The position numbers are program-made. DNA of 64,000 bases. Source: an uncultured delta proteobacterium (GTDB lineage Bacteria > Desulfobacterota > WTBG01). Of the stretch, positions 24,001 to 39,000 are shown in pieces. The DNA lies in the NCBI GenBank assembly GCA_963793865.1, contig CAWCBP010000011.1, forward strand, positions 117,652-181,651. The letters run 5' to 3'. Each line of letters opens with the position of its first letter. The first letter of the stretch is position 1.

Positions 24001-27000
24001 TGCCATCCACCAGGTCCCGGGATCCGAAGGGTCGGGCTGCACCCCCTTCCGTACCTTCGGGGTGAGCAGCGACGGGCCGCTTCCGGTCCTCATGGTGCTG
24101 AGACGGATGAGCAGCGGCAGCGATGACCTGATGAGCATGCCTCGTATTCCCATCTCATTTCTCCATCAGCGCGCGGGCCTTTTCCACCGCATCCAGCGCA
24201 TCTTTACCCCATGCGTCAGCGCCGACCTCGTCGGCAAATGACTGGGTGGTGGGGACGCCGCCAACCATTACCTTGATCCCGCCTCTCAAGCCGTTTTCGC
24301 TCAGTCCCTTCATCACCTCGTGCAGTTCCAGCATGGTGGTGGTCATGTAACAGCCGATGCCGAGAATATGAGGTTTCAGATCTTTCACCTTCTCAATGAA
24401 GGTCGGGGTTGGGACGTCAACACCCAGGTCTATCACCTCGAATCCCGCCCCGGTGAGCATTGCCGCGACAATATTTTTCCCCAGATCGTGCATGTCACCG
24501 GCAACCACGCCCATGAGATATCTTCCCCGGCTGTCCGCGGCAAGGGCGGCAAGATGCGGCTCCACCGCGTTCATTGCCGCCTTGAAGGCCTCGGTGCTCA
24601 GGACCACGTCAGGCATGAAGTAGACATTTTCCTTCCACAGCTCGCCGGTCCGTTCAATGCCGGGCACGATGGCCTCTTTGACCACCGCGAGGGGACTGAC
24701 CCCCTGATGAAGGGCTGCGCCCGCATGCGCCTGCGCGGCGTCTTCATCACCTTCAATAATTGCCTGCTTCACTTGTTCCAGGATGGTGGACACGCGCATA
24801 CCTCCTCTGAAAGTGGATTATATTCTTACGAACGCAGTTAGGTGATGTACTGCGGTTGGTAACTTGTCTCCCGCATATGCATGATCCCTGGAGCGGCTTT
24901 GCCGCGATTTATCGCGCATGAAGCGTCTACCGCGGTAGGTATAAAAAATATTGTTACTAACGATTGCCGTTGTTTATCACAGGTTTCTCTCAGGTCAAAA
25001 ATTATAGCAAATCCGGTAATCACTTTTTTCATAGATCCGTGGGTCGGGTTCGGTGTAGCGGCGCTGCTTTTCACGGCATGCCTTAAGGAAATCAGGGTCA
25101 ATGTTCCGCCGTTACTAATCCTGTGATGCCTTCCGTTATGCACGCATGACCGATCCGTCGGGAGCCGACAATGGTAGAACCGCCGCCGAACCGGATGCGT
25201 TGCGCTTTGCCGCGAACCATCGCTGTTTCCCGCGCTGGAACGGCGGAAAGCCAGTAGACGCCATGCGTGTAGGCGAGAGCCTGGCGTATGGCCTGGTAGG
25301 GTGGATAGCCGGGCCCATTGTGCTGGGCGGTGGGATGAAGGATAATCTCGGCGCCTTTCCTGCGCAATGTTGCCGTCGCTTCAGGAACGAGAAACTCGGT
25401 TTCTACCAGACAGCCCAGCCTGCCCGCGGGTGTTTCCGCCACGGGGAGAATGGCATCAGGGCCAAAGTGATCGGTATATTCTTTATGGAAATCTTTGAGC
25501 AGGGTGATTCCGGGGGAGGTCGGTGCCTGCGTCTTGGGAGAGCGCAGGACCAGCCCTTCGGGTCCCAGTATGAAACCGGTGTGAAAATACCTGCCGGGGA
25601 AGGCGGTGATTTTCTCAACGCAGGAGGAGGAGATGTAGCAGGAGTATGTGGCACAAACCCTGAGCAGCGGGTCAAGCCTTGCATCATGCGAGAGGTTCAC
25701 GGCAATCGCTTCCGGGTCAACCCGGGGGGCGATGCCGAGCTTTTGCAGCACTGCTCCAATGCCTGTGAGGCAGAGAACAGGAAGGACGATAATCCGCGGG
25801 GTGACACCGGCGGAAGGGATAAGCTCTTCAATAAGCCGGGCGGTGCGCCGGGCATTTCTCTCAACCATCTCGCCGGTGACCAGGGCGTCACCGAACCCCC
25901 GCAGCTCCATTTGAACAACTGCCGCTGTCAGCCCCCTGTTCTTTATACACGCGCCGTTTTGATCAGGATTCAATGTTTCATCGATATCCACGCTTAATCA
26001 CCGGGTTTTTTATTGCGTATCAATGTTGCTTGATTCATGAATGCTCAGGAATGTACCCCAATATTTTATATGCAGAGAGGGTGCTTAACACTTTTTTGCT
26101 AAGCACCCTCTTGGCATGTGAGTTGTCAGACGTGACTACCGCCCATATTCCTGCAGGTACTTGAAGGTGAAAATGTCTCGTTCAAATTCCACGCCGAATT
26201 CCTGTGTGGCTTGCGCGACGGTGGAATGAATGCGCTGCACGTCAATCATCTGATTGCCGTTAAAATGCCCGAATTGCACGCCGCCGTACCCCTTGCCCAC
26301 CATGCCATGCTGGTCCAGCACCTTCCATAATCTTCCCCGCCGGTCATACCGGTCGGAATAGAGTATCTGCCAGCTTTCGGGGTCGAGATACCAGACCGAC
26401 TTTTGGTAGAAAAAGTTGGGGTCTTTGCTCACCGCTTCAATCACCTGAGCTTTTACCCGTTCTCTCTGGGTGCCGTCCATGATACAATCGCCCGGCGTGT
26501 GGACCAGTTTGGAGTTATCGTTGTGGCGCACCAGCAGCAGATCCTTGGCGCCGACATAGGTGTAGGTGTTTTCCTGAATTTCGCCATCCCATCCCAGATT
26601 GTCGTACGCGGCGTTGTCTCCACCGCCCTTGGGGTCCTGCCGCTCGGTGGTGGAACTGCGCCGCACCCTGCGGATGGATGGTGTCCACATCCAGCGGTCA
26701 TAGGGCTTGGTGCGGTCGATGTAATGTATCTCCAGTATCCGCATGTCCCGCACTTCCGGCGGATCAATCTGTTCCATGGTAAAGGTCCGCCAGATTCTTT
26801 TGGGGTTCGGAGTGAGCTCCGGCACCGGCAGGGCATCGGTGCGGCCGGCGAAAAAGCACATCTTGTTTCTGATCAGGATGCTCATGTCATACTTCAGCCG
26901 CCCGTCGACAATAAACCCCTTCTCTTCGCTTTGGTATGAATCACCGAAGCTGCGGCAGCGAAAGTTGTGCGCCATCTCGATTGCTGTCGTGGTGTCCGGG

Positions 27001-36000: not shown

Positions 36001-39000
36001 CATGTTAACATTTGATATCATCACCAGCCACACGTCTTCCCCTTCATGGTCCCAGGCGCGCGGACAGATGAACCCCATCATGGGCGGATCACCGCTTTTG
36101 AACAGCGGCTGATGGAGCGCGTAGGGATGTTCCAGGGTGAGGTTGGTCATCTCGTACCCGATGGAGGTGACCGTGGCGTAAAGCCGGCGGCCCCTGTTCA
36201 TGCCCATGCTGCGGGCCATCCGTGACTGTCGCCCGTCGGCGGCGATGACGAACATGCCTTTGAACGCCCGGCCTCCGGCCGTGTAGACCACGACCCCTTG
36301 GCCGTCCTTTGCCGCACGGATGACGTTCTGCCCGGTGAACAGCTTAACCCCGAGGCGCCTGCATTCTTCGGTCAAACCGGCCAGGAGGCGGCCCTTGTGA
36401 TATACCGCGCTGGCCCGGCCCGCCCGACCTTTTTGGACATTGGCCGTATAGTTGCCGAAGGTGATGCTTTCCCCGCCGGGTGAGTAAATTTCCCAGGCGA
36501 AAAAATCCTTGGTGGGGCCGTCGTATTTCAGGCTGAACCCGTGATGGGGAAAGCCCAGCACGCCGCTTTGTTCGTTGTGGGTAAGACGTTCCCCCATGTA
36601 GTTCCCGGTGAGGGTGACCAGCATCATGCCGCACATCCTCAGGATGTCCGAGGGGCTGTCCTTCCGCTCGAGCAGGGCAACCGAAAGCCCGTTTTCCGCC
36701 GCCATCTTGGCCGCGGTCAGTCCGGCAGGTCCGGCACCGACTACGACGAGATCATAGGTCTTGCTCATAGTGTCTCTTCCTCCTGTAAAATGAATAAAAG
36801 AACCTTTACGCGGCCGGCCCCTCCGGTTGTATCATGCCTTCCAATACGAGATCAAGCCGCTGAAAAAGATCCTCAGATGTCATGCTATAGCTTTTTTTAA
36901 TCAGGCAGTCAATGATAAAAAGGGTGAAAATCCCTTCCAGCATGGTTGCCAGCTTGAGCGCCGGCACATCGCTTCGCATCTGGCCCTGCTGCTGCCCCTT
37001 GTCTATGATCAGGGAGAGGGACTGCCTGAAATCATCAAAAAAGAGGCCGTTGTACTCTTTGTTGTTGAAGCTTGATAAATTCTTAAGCAGTATGGCCCGG
37101 GTAATTTCCTGGTTCTGGGCGGCAATGCGGGCGGTGGCGGCAAATACCTTGTTGATCTTTGTTTTCATCGGTGCGTCGGTGGAGACAATTTCCTGGCACT
37201 TTTTCCTCAGGAAGGGAATCTTTTTCTTGAAAATCTCGACCAGCACATCCTCCTTGCGGGGGAAGTAATTGAAGAAGGTGCTCTGGGCGATGTCGATCTT
37301 CTCGGTAATATCTTCGACGGAGGTATTCTCAAACCCCTTCTCATTGAAGAGCTTTTGTGCCACCGTGAAGATGGCATCCCGCGTGGCCTGCTTCTTCCGT
37401 TCTCTCCGCCTGACCGGTGTGCGCTTGCCGAACATTGGTTTCTTTTCAGGTGATGTGGTTATGACGTGGGAATAAACTGCCAATAAGCTGCTCAAACATT
37501 TATAAGTGCACTCATATATCGTAACCGGAAGTGATGTCAAGAAAATTTGTTTCCACCCCGGCACGCATCGTCCCCCTCAGCGGGTAATGCGTTGACTTTT
37601 AGGCGGGGAGCTACTACTATAGCATATGCCCGACACGGGACAGAAGAGAAACGGTGAGGGAACAGGGGGCGTGGGCCATGAAAATTGCGGTTACCGGCAA
37701 AGGGGGCGTGGGAAAGACGACCGTAGCAGCGGCGCTCTGCTATGCCTTCGCTGAAAAAGGCTATACGGTTGTGGCCATCGACGCCGACCCGGATGCGAAT
37801 CTGGCTTCGGCCCTGGGCATCCCGGCGGATATCCATCCGGCGCCCATCAGCACGCTTGCCGACCTGATTGAGGAGCGCACCGGTGCGCGGCCGGGCGCCT
37901 CCGGCGGCATGTTCAAATTAAATCCGAAGGTTGATGACCTGCCGGAAAAACTGTGGGTGGAGCATAACGGGATCCGGCTGATGGTCATGGGATCGGTAAA
38001 GAAGGGGGGAGGCGGATGCGTGTGCCCGGAGAGCGTCCTGCTCAAGTCGCTCGTGCAGCACCTTATACTTTACAGGAAGGAAGTGGTCATCATGGATATG
38101 GAGGCGGGCGTTGAGCACCTTGGCCGTGCCACCGCCCAGGCGGTGAATCACTTTATGGTAGTGCTGGAACCGGGAATGCGCAGCATTGAGACGGCTCGCC
38201 AGATAAAGAAGCTGGCTCATGATATCGGCATAAAAAGCGTATACGGGATTGGCAATAAGATCCGCAGGCAGTCCGACCGGGATTTTTTTCGGGAGGCGGC
38301 TGCCGACATTCCTATCCTCGCGTACATTCCCTATGATGAAAAAATCATCGAAGCGGACCTCACCCGGAGCTCCATCTGGCAGGAGGGCCGGGAAGTTGTG
38401 GCGGAAGTGAGGAGGCTGGTGAGCAGCCTGGCCGGGGATGGATAAGATGAAGATAGCTGTCATCGGCGCAGGAGCCATGGGGAGCTTATTTGCCTGTTTT
38501 CTGCACCGTGCCGGACACGAGGTCTGGCTGCTCGATAAGGACGGGGAGCGGGTGGAGGCCATACGGCGGTCCGGACTGACGCTTGAGGACGCTTCCGGCA
38601 CACACCGGCTGGACATTTCCACCGTAACCGGCTGTGCCGGCGATATCGGTGCGGCCGACCTGGTGATCGTCTTTGTCAAGTCCTATGATACGGCGGAAGC
38701 CCTGCGCGACGCCCGCCCCGTGGTCCGGGATGATACGAGGGTACTGAGCCTGCAAAACGGTCTCAATAACCTGGAAACCATTGCCGCCGCGACCGGCAAA
38801 GGCCGCCTGCTCGGCGGCACCACCGCTCACGGCGCCACCCTGATTGCCCACGGCCGCGTCCGGCATGCCGGCAGCGGTGATACGGTGATCGGCGCCTTCG
38901 GGAGCGCCGGGGCAGGTGAGCTCGATGGCGTGGCCGGGCTTTTGAACGGCGCCGGCATCAGAACCGCCGTGACCGGCGATCTGACCGCAACCCTTTGGAC

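Follow-up and report, generated by a model that had tools for sequence, protein, structure and literature searches.

What does a reductase of the FDBR fold do in a gene neighborhood that otherwise resembles an envelope transporter? The question is raised by a locus of an uncultured Thermodesulfobacteriota member (genome completeness 98.6%), which we analyzed in a window, the whole stretch of DNA under study, of 64,000 nucleotides of contig C11. The locus lies at 26136-37564 of the window on the minus strand and, by Pfam, NCBIfam and ORF calls, comprises a TetR regulator, a GGR-like FAD enzyme, a flavodoxin, an FDBR-fold protein, an AmeABCD-type transport set and a cupredoxin-like protein. Families, order and strand agree with the survey's finding, but what was counted there as eleven genes amounts to nine, called as twelve separate ORF pieces. 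The survey's counts for the genome were matched as well (4 DUF1302 places over cut-off, about 7 DUF1329 and 5 BNR genes). We favor, with modest confidence, the reading that the locus is one functional unit, a reductive trio together with an AmeABCD-type transporter, for which the best fitting substrate would be a tetrapyrrole-derived pigment.

Three of the genes are broken, and the suspicion that the splits are artefacts is probably correct. In four public metagenome runs, each from a different study, contigs differ from our sequence by single bases exactly at the breaks, and the frames reopen when these differences are applied by script; the BNR, RND and GGR breaks are therefore most likely assembly errors. 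In translation, the BNR gene keeps its overall frame on either side of an out-of-frame stretch that contains two TGA codons. A G added behind 32742 (four of four runs) and a base deleted at 32802 (three of four) extend its open frame from 215 to 364 aa, the ortholog in G003, a genome of the same genus, having 361 aa. The RND gene has one frameshift and a C-terminal patch out of frame; a deletion at 30759, seen in all four runs, joins the first two pieces (484 to 717 aa), and six further indels occur in the metagenome contigs at 29231-29444. The tail of the GGR gene is out of frame and runs into the flavodoxin gene. Here one base is missing at 35468 (two of four runs) or at 35516 (three of four), and the deletion at 35468 changes the product from 554 to 454 aa, compared with 453 aa for the G003 ortholog.

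The FDBR-fold reductase (33372..34181, minus strand; PF05996, 77 bits against a cut-off of 31) has an N-terminal transmembrane helix at residues ~8-29. PF05996 has 11 places over cut-off and 3 weaker ones in the genome, and among its 13 FDBR-like ORFs this one alone has a hydrophobic N-terminus. In all 29 sequences the helix is followed by more lysine and arginine residues than precede it (mean 3.9 vs 1.3), a bias from which the positive-inside rule predicts a cytoplasmic FDBR domain. The structure model (pLDDT 91) was matched by Foldseek to PebB (TM 0.73-0.75, E 2.7e-14), and then to PcyA, PebA, HY2, RCCR and HemF. Apart from 8xqw and 8xks, which are PcyA-like subunits of a chloroplast motor complex (Ycf2-FtsHi), all solved matches at E <= 0.01 act on tetrapyrroles. 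The central Asp of FDBRs contacts the pyrrole nitrogens; D124 of the present protein aligns with this Asp in PebB, PcyA and PebA and is conserved without exception in the 29 sequences aligned.

The protein thus shares Pfam family, fold and invariant central Asp with PebB, PcyA, PebA, HY2 and pre-PcyA (PMC10151467, PMC13446030), at an identity to solved FDBRs of only ~20%. A Thr stands where PcyA has His, in a column that in our reading of the alignment would be the His88 position, at which Thr has been reported for the pre-3 lineage of pre-PcyA (PMC10151467, PMC13446030). Unlike the known bilin reductases, the protein is anchored in the membrane, and its partner is a dedicated flavodoxin-like protein in place of heme oxygenase, Fe-S, V4R and globin genes. 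The alignments show no counterpart of the second proton donors that known FDBRs possess, and Gly-Gly stands in the position of the C-terminal Asp typical of PebA/PebB. Neither a heme oxygenase nor a HutW-type enzyme over cut-off was found in the genome, so that a bilin source of its own was not found there either. The caveat attached to the survey's finding, that the cargo may be a hydrophobic compound other than a tetrapyrrole, stands. An isoprenoid, polyene or alkyl/prenyl-aromatic compound would then be reduced and pumped by the same unit, the FDBR fold having been recruited for a new conjugated substrate, and the missing proton donors and bilin source favor this. We give this alternative serious weight, although at less than an even chance, because the structural matches and the invariant Asp described above speak for tetrapyrroles, as do HemF-like genes that stand beside FDBR paralogs twice in this genome. 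Two or three FDBR copies are present in G018, G026, G032, G039 and G040, which fits substrate-diversified processing better than housekeeping.

The second member of the trio is a HemG/FldH-like protein (34230..35360, minus strand; PF12724, 65.5 bits against a cut-off of 27) of Flavodoxin_5, the Pfam family that includes HemG, and its membership there is a further point against a non-tetrapyrrole substrate. It has a Sec-type signal peptide and an FMN-loop motif conserved in the homologs; a helical linker then leads to an alpha+beta domain of KA1-like fold at the C-terminus. The model of the protein (pLDDT 73) matches flavodoxins, heme-bound FldH (8g64) included, at Z ~14, and residues 251-361 match 5wi2_B (Z 11.4, rmsd 2.0, 92 aa); in kinases the KA1 fold binds acidic membrane lipids. 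The flavodoxin fold with added helices is common to this protein, to FldH/HmuF of Fusobacterium nucleatum, as described in excerpts of PMC10404700, and to HemG, the menaquinone-dependent protoporphyrinogen oxidase. FldH/HmuF and HemG act directly on tetrapyrroles, and FldH is described in the same excerpts as a heme-binding flavodoxin that reduces a linear tetrapyrrole (PMC10404700). However, the FldH match (Z 14.3) ties with those of ordinary flavodoxins, and the best NCBIfam match, the HemG model, reaches 31 bits against a cut-off of 142. The C11 flavodoxin also differs from FldH/HmuF and HemG in its signal peptide and its extra KA1-like domain, and a HmuW/HutW partner of the FldH/HmuF type was not found in this genome. 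Of 19 homologs, 16 start with a signal-peptide-like segment; the remaining three are encoded in the vicinity of anchored FDBRs, at a distance of 5.5 kb in locus L020 and next to the FDBR or separated from it by one gene in L022 and L026. Since the FDBR is predicted to be cytoplasmic and most of the flavodoxins carry an export signal, the two may occupy opposite faces of the membrane and need not be redox partners.

The third enzyme, a GGR-superfamily FAD oxidoreductase without signal peptide (35104..36768, minus strand), matches TIGR02032 with 72.8-78.7 bits, below the cut-off of 158.8; its true length is ~453 aa, with the end near 35405, as in the 453-aa ortholog L011:7217-8578. Preceding it is the TetR-family regulator (36806..37564 or 37483, minus strand; PF00440, 45.9 bits against a cut-off of 24). 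The longest ORF has 252 aa, and the G003 ortholog (L011:6503-7180) has 225 aa; a start near 37483, giving ~225 aa, is likely. TetR likewise precedes GGR in L011, L012, L014, L015, L021, L023, L038 and L039, and the unit is probably controlled by this repressor sensing the compound. A repeat search revealed an imperfect 22-bp palindrome 5' of the TetR start (37498..37519), which we tentatively put forward as a candidate operator; the 9-nt core of the palindrome is found again in the corresponding position ahead of TetR in L011/L031, a conservation within the genus only. In a promoter and terminator scan of the locus, sites were no more frequent than in shuffled sequence.

The envelope half, on the same strand, is made up of a DUF1329/LolA-like periplasmic protein with signal peptide (26136..27389; PF07044, 143.8 bits against 23.1; PF17131, 56.8) and a weak match to LolA-like 3bk5, a DUF1302 outer-membrane protein with signal peptide (27411..28928; PF06980, 42.8 bits against a cut-off of 23.2), an RND inner-membrane pump in three ORF pieces (29046..31443) and a Ycf48-like BNR beta-propeller lipoprotein with lipobox LFAGC in two pieces (32094..33155; PF14870, 98.9 and 41.2 bits). 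The RND pump is HAE3/MMPL-like, with NCBIfam matches to HAE3, MMPL and HpnN models. Its fragments match HAE3/MMPL only weakly, and the intact same-genus ortholog (L011:12232-14601, 789 aa) reaches 146.7 bits with HAE3, 90 with MMPL and 62.9 with HpnN, all below the curated cut-offs. That the GGR, HAE3 and HemG models all fall short in this way counts against our main reading. HpnN carries hopanoids and MmpL proteins carry mycobacterial lipids. These matches, a weak one to the model of the sterol transporter BstA and the anchoring of the FDBR in the membrane would suit the making and export of the cell's own envelope lipid or pigment, tailored by GGR and FDBR at the inner membrane and carried to the outer membrane by the RND set. 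Export of a cell-wall component was proposed for the quartet by Price et al., according to excerpts of that preprint (bioRxiv 10.1101/072470). We consider such an export unlikely here, as no backbone synthase is conserved in the loci, where only seven families are common (see below), and TetR control, patchy distribution, multiple copies and catabolic neighbors fit accessory processing better.

The closest known system is the tetrapartite, HAE3-type RND transporter AmeABCD of Castellaniella defragrans 65Phen (PMC6394551, in excerpts), a host unlike the present one. The same four families are adjacent in both (DUF1302, LolA-like DUF1329, COG4447/Ycf48-like BNR and HAE3-like RND), and both sets lie in an island for hydrophobic-compound metabolism; the likeness is one of protein families, and the C11 RND scores below the HAE3 cut-off. 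Deletion of AmeABCD lowers monoterpene tolerance and raises Nile Red accumulation (PMC6394551, in excerpts). Genes of the four families are cofit in Shewanella, Kangiella and Pseudomonas, as excerpted from bioRxiv 10.1101/072470. The label "nanopod-type" previously given to the set did not hold, since the source table merely lists one DUF1302 and one DUF1329 protein among those found in nanopod preparations (PMC3110197, in excerpt). Unlike AmeABCD, the C11 set stands with reductases of the FDBR-fold, flavodoxin and GGR-like kinds, an association that we did not find in the literature searched. It also has an extra gene for an exported 150-aa cupredoxin-like protein (31560..32012, minus strand; PF13473, 21.6 bits, below cut-off). 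In the alignment of this protein C115 is invariant and C87 nearly so; no His or Met is conserved, so that it lacks copper ligands. The gene is absent at the corresponding spot in G003 and G002, and homologs occur after the FDBR in L055-L058 and in a second transport set of L038. Between it and the RND gene lies a REP-like palindromic repeat (31469..31528; 96 blastn hits in the genome), which in four metagenomes is covered at ~30-fold excess depth and bordered by many loose ends.

Is the association of enzymes and transporter conserved? We surveyed 36 orthologous loci (FDBR identity >= 40%) from 60 relatives; no FDBR ortholog was found at E <= 1e-10 in 8 genomes of family f2 or in the 19 genomes from other families of the phylum. 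In 27 loci the FDBR has the flavodoxin no more than 1.3 kb away, in 20 it has GGR within 1.4 kb and in 16 a transport gene within 10 kb, whereas a chance neighbor would be expected at ~4% of places by our own estimate from ~7 DUF1329 genes in 3.85 Mb. Among the 20 loci with GGR linked, 14 also have the transport set. Of the six that lack it, five are on contigs that extend less than 700 nt beyond TetR/GGR or end inside GGR, which makes L015 the sole assessable exception (link kept in 14/15), and loci without GGR have transport genes in only 2 of 16 cases. The link between FDBR and transport is thus borne out, but the conserved partner is the trio of GGR, flavodoxin and membrane-anchored FDBR rather than the FDBR by itself. 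The linked loci span several well-supported clades and three families in a quick tree, and in an ORF clustering of 14 of the 16, only the enzyme trio and the transport four, seven families, were common to at least 9 loci.

The arrangement varies. The transport set is co-directional behind the FDBR only in the three genomes of this genus and divergent from GGR-flavodoxin-FDBR in 10 other loci; in L016, L020 and L053 it shares the strand of the FDBR and lies upstream of it or surrounds it. The link is therefore one at the level of the locus and not of one fixed operon, and because the halves are divergent in most relatives co-transcription is not general, a point against our main reading. A second, soluble FDBR type, 65-70% identical to the paralog at C1:440007-440714, is found inside a transport operon in five genomes of two other families (L055-L058, L060). 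On rechecking, the tight operon described earlier for relatives was on one strand in L055, L056 and L058 and partial in L057 and L060, with gaps of tens of bases and the order RND-DUF1302-DUF1329-BNR-(unknown, 450-610 aa)-FDBR-150-aa homolog-PNPOx-286 aa. The claim that FDBRs are built into transport operons thus holds as a recurrent linkage for two FDBR subfamilies, and not as a single operon that is the conserved state.

Enzymes and transporter might be mere neighbors without a common task, as AmeABCD-type sets may habitually adjoin unrelated catabolic operons and 20 of the 36 loci have no transport gene in the stretch covered, at least 8 of them with at least 8 kb on both sides (for example L022, L025, L028 and L042). 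We think this very unlikely in view of the link, which spans three families and as many arrangements and is kept in 14 of the 15 GGR-linked loci that can be assessed, and of the different FDBR subfamily embedded in tight transport operons; moreover, a substrate-specific accessory transporter would itself adjoin catabolic operons. Many aromatic-type catabolic genes surround the locus (FAD_binding_4, Amidohydro_2, a corrinoid methyltransferase set), and such genes, with aldehyde dehydrogenase, flank both it and a further two FDBR/GGR/transport loci in the genome, so that a non-tetrapyrrole substrate fits this neighborhood equally well. Pointing the same way are the GGR-like enzyme in front, with ~20 GGR-like beside the 13 FDBR-like ORFs of the genome, the role of AmeABCD in monoterpene metabolism (PMC6394551, in excerpts) and DUF1302/DUF1329 genes that are p-cresol-induced and occur in phenanthrene and steroid clusters (bioRxiv 10.1101/072470, in excerpts).

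Returning to the favored tetrapyrrole cargo, toward which the fold families point, we propose that a hydrophobic, conjugated compound from the surroundings would partition into the envelope. At the membrane, the cytoplasmic GGR-superfamily enzyme, the FMN flavodoxin and the FDBR tethered to the cytoplasmic membrane by its helix would saturate C=C bonds, the FDBR-fold step by stepwise electron and proton transfer via the conserved Asp and the flavoprotein steps by hydride transfer. The RND pump, propeller lipoprotein, LolA-like protein and DUF1302 protein, with which the copper-less cupredoxin-like periplasmic protein would go, may shift the compound, or what its reduction yields, between the inner and outer membranes; with AmeABCD as a guide, the movement would be outward, limiting toxicity. 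The substrate class that best fits the folds would be a bilin, porphyrin or chlorophyll breakdown product that may carry an isoprenoid tail. The pairing of FDBR, flavin enzymes and transporter, kept in related families, points to an unstudied, oxygen-free handling of greasy pigment-like molecules.

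Nine genes, read as twelve ORF pieces from ORF calls and family matches, occupy the minus strand at 26136-37564. From 37564 downwards they run in the order TetR, a GGR-like gene (geranylgeranyl reductase superfamily), Flavodoxin_5, FDBR (ferredoxin-dependent bilin reductase family), BNR, a gene for a 150-aa protein, RND, DUF1302 and DUF1329, separated by 21-216 nt. The GGR-like gene encodes an FAD enzyme for which the best model is the GGR superfamily, below its cut-off, and the flavodoxin, encoded on the same minus strand, is a 376-aa Flavodoxin_5 protein. A Ycf48-like propeller with a lipobox is encoded by the BNR gene and an exported protein by the 150-aa gene. 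A scan for promoters and terminators gave 11 and 13 sites, compared with 10.2 and 17.0 in shuffled sequence. In the gap between the genes for the 150-aa protein and RND lies a REP-like palindromic repeat of 58 nt (31469-31528), which has 96 blastn matches genome-wide. In four metagenomes it is covered about 30x as deeply as the flanking sequence, and many loose ends fall at its edges.

The FDBR passes Pfam PF05996 with 77 bits (gathering score 31). Its structural model is confident (pLDDT 91), with one long helix, residues 2-53, followed by a predicted alpha/beta/alpha sandwich characteristic of the fold. The closest neighbor in a structural search was PebB (6qx6; TM 0.73/0.75, E 2.7e-14), followed by PcyA, PebA and HY2, then by RCCR (TM ~0.62) and HemF (~0.5). 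An alignment of 29 subfamily members has 39 invariant columns, and one of these is D124 (29/29); the solved PebB, PcyA and PebA chains have their Asp at this position. D124 thus corresponds to Asp105 of Synechocystis PcyA, reported to be a critical residue (PMC10151467). In HMMER alignments, with columns assigned by reading, T107 and A82 occupy the columns of PcyA His88 and Glu76, the T107 column being an invariant Thr in the subfamily, and an invariant G241-G242 replaces the Asp of the PebB/PebA Asp-Pro-Ala, giving Gly-Gly-Pro-Ala. This 'DPA' motif holds the C-terminal Asp proton donor of PebA and PebB. Second proton donors, either of the PcyA His88/Glu76 type or the 'DPA' Asp, were absent from the FDBR in the alignment. 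By its structural neighbors and aligned residues, the protein is a true member of the FDBR fold that has the central Asp and lacks the second proton donors of the characterized enzymes.

At least 164 clusters in the wider protein collection belong to this subfamily. The 120 homologs among the matches listed all carry PF05996 and are 232-280 aa long; few sources name them, as hypothetical protein or, for three of the matches listed, as 15,16-dihydrobiliverdin:ferredoxin oxidoreductase. A heme oxygenase (PF01126) was not matched in the genome (3.85 Mb, 98.6% complete), nor did any HutW-type heme-degrading radical SAM enzyme exceed the cut-off there; the best matches in the HutW search were HemN-like paralogs only (194.7 bits vs 400).

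The N-terminus of the FDBR is a 22-residue uncharged helix, which is not that of a soluble enzyme, and among the 13 readable FDBR ORFs of the genome it is the only one to start with a hydrophobic helix. In each of the 29 sequences, the 15 residues that follow the helix hold more Lys and Arg than the stretch preceding it (mean 3.9 vs 1.3), which favors a putative cytoplasmic location of the catalytic domain; the net charge around the helix is ambiguous. The flavodoxin domain spans residues 33-181 and keeps the phosphate-loop motif in the homolog alignment. A typical Sec signal, with a basic n-region, 12-15 hydrophobic residues and small-x-small ahead of the mature protein, is present in 16 of 19 flavodoxin homologs and predicts an exported protein, and the remaining three have no N-terminal extension. 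Flavodoxins without a signal also occur near anchored FDBRs in relatives, one gene away in locus L022, adjacent in L026 and at 5.5 kb in L020. It is the membrane side of the FDBR and of the flavodoxin that settles whether the latter can donate electrons to the former.

The flavodoxin model (pLDDT 73) matches flavodoxins at Z ~14. The top Foldseek match, Fusobacterium nucleatum FldH with bound heme (8g64, Z 14.3), is tied with ordinary flavodoxins, and another match is a Bacteroides protein whose structure starts at residue 32 (4ici, 23% identity). The C-terminal domain (residues 251-361) is well predicted and matches KA1 domains (5wi2_B, Z 11.4, rmsd 2.0 over 92 residues; 5iri_B, Z 11.1), which bind acidic membrane lipids. 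Against a protein-cluster collection, this domain had a best score of 0.80 and matched only clusters without names. FldH and HmuF are described as holding heme over FMN and reducing the linear tetrapyrrole anaerobilin (PMC10404700). Assignment of the flavodoxin as HemG was rejected, as the equivalog NF008316 gave 31 bits vs 142 over residues 31-112 only, leaving solely the domain family Flavodoxin_5. The GGR-like protein likewise falls below the subfamily cut-off of TIGR02032 (72.8 bits in the window and 78.7 for the intact ortholog vs 158.8), and its PDB matches are confined to the FAD-binding N-terminus.

The four transport families of the locus are those of AmeABCD from Castellaniella defragrans, the RND pump being a candidate member of the HAE3 family. 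The counterpart of AmeA is the DUF1302 protein (PF06980, 42.8 bits vs 23.2), that of AmeB the DUF1329/LolA-like protein (PF07044, 143.8 bits vs 23.1; PF17131, 56.8 bits), and that of AmeC the COG4447/Ycf48-like BNR protein, whose two pieces match PF14870 with 98.9 and 41.2 bits; against the Ycf48 model its intact ortholog reaches 152 bits, short of the equivalog cut-off. For the RND protein, the candidate AmeD counterpart, HAE3 is the best NCBIfam match of the intact ortholog (146.7 bits vs 351.9), and in the related sets of L016 and L056 the RND protein exceeds the Pfam MMPL cut-off. The four genes are adjacent in 26136-33155, together with one small extra gene, and adjoin one another in 11 relatives' loci. 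In the alignment of the 150-aa family a pair of Cys residues is conserved and copper ligands are not; its gene is absent at this locus in G003, of the same genus, and in G002, and the copy in the window is followed by the REP-like repeat.

AmeABCD is encoded in a monoterpene island, and its deletion lowered monoterpene tolerance and increased Nile Red accumulation (PMC6394551); export of hydrophobic compounds dependent on the proton motive force was shown for Castellaniella only (PMC6394551). The four genes of the quartet are cofit in Shewanella, Kangiella and Pseudomonas, and export of a cell-wall component was proposed for them (bioRxiv 10.1101/072470); for P. putida, involvement in the use of esters was suggested (bioRxiv 10.1101/2020.07.04.188060). 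The label 'nanopod'-type, given to the set in the survey's finding, is not carried by its source: the paper on Delftia sp. Cs1-4 does no more than name one DUF1302 and one DUF1329 protein among those identified in nanopod preparations (PMC3110197). Hallmarks of nanopods are the structural protein NpdA and sheathed outer-membrane vesicles.

Three genes of the locus are broken. The BNR gene has a short out-of-frame patch with two TGA codons, both flanks sharing one frame; the RND gene has one frameshift and an out-of-frame C-terminal patch; and the reading frame of GGR runs on into the flavodoxin gene. We compared 28900-36800 with contigs from four public metagenome runs of four studies (freshwater, sediment, soil and soil), and single-base differences sit exactly at the breaks. 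They are, for BNR, an additional G behind 32742 (4/4 runs) and a deletion of one base at 32802 (3/4); for RND, a deletion at 30759 (4/4); and for GGR, a deletion at 35468 (2/4) or 35516 (3/4). When the indels were applied by script, BNR was extended from 215 to 364 aa (361 in the G003 ortholog) and RND from 484 to 717 aa (789 in G003), while GGR was cut to 454 aa (453 in G003). In the C-terminal patch of RND the contigs have six indels between 29231 and 29444 and give no clean read-through, because those covering it belong to more distant strains. Assembly errors most likely account for the broken genes.

Orthologs of the FDBR were searched for in 60 relatives at E <= 1e-10. They were found in four families of the class, f1 (9/10 genomes), f3 (1/1), f4 (4/4) and f6 (16/17), and in none of eight genomes of f2 or 19 of other families of the phylum. 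All 36 places with at least 40% identity were taken, and their ORFs were named by blastp to the window proteins. The flavodoxin lies within 1.3 kb of the FDBR in 27 of the 36 loci, the GGR within 1.4 kb in 20, and one or more transport genes within 10 kb in 16. Presence of the transport set follows that of the GGR: 14 of the 20 GGR-linked loci have it, and transport genes occur in only two of the 16 loci without GGR (L016 and L053). Five of the six GGR-linked loci without the set (L013, L014, L039, L040 and L044) have less than 700 nt beyond TetR/GGR or the contig ends in GGR, and the sixth, L015, has 4.6 kb beyond TetR/GGR and no transport genes. By an estimate from about seven DUF1329 genes per 3.85 Mb, the chance of a DUF1329 gene within 10 kb of a random place is ~4%; because the relatives are not independent, no test of the linkage is given.

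The arrangement of the set differs among the loci. Within this genus (L011 and L012) it is co-directional behind the FDBR, in L018, L021, L023, L024, L027, L029, L038, L041, L045, L047 and L052 it is divergent from TetR/GGR, and in L016, L020 and L053 it precedes or surrounds the FDBR on the same strand. L023 and L038, on contigs C24 and C36 of G029, are near-identical copies of the TetR-GGR-flavodoxin-FDBR locus with two flanking transport sets; their FDBR proteins are identical, and the pair may stem from a duplication or from two haplotypes binned together. In a quick maximum-likelihood tree of 32 loci, the window and two outgroup paralogs, with SH-aLRT support only and excluding four loci with split FDBR ORFs (L039, L050, L051 and L052), the transport-linked loci are scattered over several supported clades. 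Clustering the ORFs of 14 of the 16 linked loci gave only seven families common to at least nine loci, and no conserved ferredoxin, cytochrome, heme oxygenase or backbone synthase was found in these 14.

The survey's finding that the transport quartet precedes another type of FDBR in relatives was borne out in G029, G033, G034, G032 and G018 (families f4 and f6). These genomes have orthologs, 60-70% identical, of the soluble FDBR paralog at C1:440007-440714 on another contig of this genome, in a tight run on one strand that reads PadR, NAD(P)H-binding protein, RND, DUF1302, DUF1329, BNR, a 450-610-aa protein, FDBR, a homolog of the 150-aa protein, a PNPOx-type protein, a 286-aa protein and MFS. 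This soluble type is near a transport set in 5 of 10 relatives' loci and in neither of two loci of this genome. The 450-610-aa proteins between BNR and FDBR (L056:8092-9915 and L055:8567-9922) have no Pfam or NCBIfam match, and a 481-aa protein near the FDBR in L016 (10972-12417) has a sub-threshold Ferrochelatase match (20.3 bits, E 3e-4); this may be what the survey called a 'ferrochelatase-fold lipoprotein'. A small C-terminal domain resembling PCP_red, of the family of the protochlorophyllide reductase 57-kD subunit, was seen below the cut-off in the 286-aa protein of the FDBR operon (L056:11900-12760) and on an MFS transporter adjoining a flavodoxin-FDBR pair (L025:8145-9695). Flavoenzymes of 652 aa with OYE and Pyr_redox_2 domains lie directly beside soluble FDBR paralogs (L065:10798-12756, L058:6459-8414 and L063:11603-13561). 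These OYE/FadH-type neighbors were rejected as evidence for bilins, since their best NCBIfam match, 'bilirubin reductase, long form', scored 382-399 bits vs 750 and was tied with BaiCD and a mycofactocin OYE.

The genome has 11 PF05996 matches over the cut-off and three weaker ones in 3.85 Mb, and about 20 GGR-like ORFs by blastp; both families are unusually expanded for a genome of this size. At C1:513700-537000, NuoE/F-like genes, a ferredoxin, GGR, two FDBR-like genes, GGR, three FAD_binding_4 genes and a cupin regulator are followed by BNR-RND-DUF1302-DUF1329, and C14:310500-327000 holds RND-DUF1302-DUF1329, FAD_binding_4, BNR, NuoE/F-like genes and GGR. FAD_binding_4 genes lie between FDBR/GGR genes and transport sets at C1:524040-529060 and C14:317544-319193 (L034 and L036). 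A HemF (coproporphyrinogen-oxidase)-like copy of 101 bits is found 2 kb from the soluble paralog at C1:440007 (C1:437215-438003; L064:7216-8004).

Below 26136 the same-strand run goes on. After the DUF1329 gene, a CN-hydrolase, a B12-binding corrinoid protein, an MtaA/URO-D-like methyltransferase and a RACo-type reductive activator (20355-25991, minus strand) are followed by a HemF-like gene, another GGR-like gene and several FAD_binding_4 genes. The order CN-hydrolase, corrinoid protein, methyltransferase is kept in the same-genus locus L011. The HemF-like gene (19239-20039, minus strand), in an anaerobe, is a weaker match than the copy on C1 (Pfam 37.9 bits, NCBIfam 54 vs 297) and adjoins the frameshifted GGR-like gene at 17688-19038. 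Further along the minus strand, 8845-17606 holds four FAD_binding_4 (VAO/PCMH-type) genes, Amidohydro_2, an aldehyde dehydrogenase and a sigma-54 activator.

What is conserved as a unit is the reductive trio of GGR, flavodoxin and FDBR with an AmeABCD-type transporter, probably under TetR control. Its most likely role is to process, at the membrane, a hydrophobic conjugated compound from outside, and the transporter would move either the substrate or the product across the envelope. Given the fold families involved, namely an FDBR with its Asp, a flavodoxin of the HemG/FldH type and HemF-like neighbors of the paralogs, we slightly favor a tetrapyrrole-derived substrate. Nearly as likely is an isoprenoid or aromatic one, as the trio includes a GGR-like enzyme, the transporter has a monoterpene precedent, the catabolic neighbors are of aromatic type, the FDBR is without second proton donors and no source of bilins was found in the genome.

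Pre-PcyA FDBRs of heterotrophic bacteria are reported next to heme oxygenase, Fe-S, V4R and globin genes (PMC10151467). Two studies regard all the FDBRs they describe as enzymes that depend on ferredoxin and act on biliverdin, with heme oxygenase usually included in the pre-1 and pre-3 clusters (PMC10151467, PMC13446030). Here the fold is expanded (11 over the cut-off), membrane-anchored, linked to a transporter and present in an anaerobe without a detected heme oxygenase. A 2026 follow-up uses CPO (HemF) as the outgroup of FDBRs, and its discussion asks whether earlier 'archae-FDBR' enzymes exist (PMC13446030). A literature search for 'bilin reductase' together with 'Desulfobacterota' found nothing, and among the matches listed for DUF1302, DUF1329, AmeABCD or HAE3 none had 'bilin reductase'; the search covered papers apart from the supplements and trees of the FDBR studies, which could hold relatives.

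We know of no established route for the O2-free transformation of tetrapyrroles or conjugated pigments in soils and sediments. One such pathway in soil and sediment Thermodesulfobacteriota, which we consider unlikely as a whole, would import external tetrapyrrole pigments (bilins, porphyrins, and chlorophyll or heme breakdown products) through the AmeABCD-type system and reduce them at the cytoplasmic membrane by the anchored FDBR with electrons from the exported HemG-like flavodoxin, not ferredoxin, the pigments serving as an electron sink or entering the first step of anaerobic tetrapyrrole breakdown. The locus offers concrete proteins with which roles of the FDBR fold outside pigment synthesis can be tested. 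The widespread and unexplained AmeABCD-type quartet gains a defined enzymatic partner, which could reveal its cargo. If the pathway were true, the expanded FDBR and HemF-like paralogs of these anaerobes would represent an early 'archae-FDBR' pool of the kind asked about in that discussion (PMC13446030).
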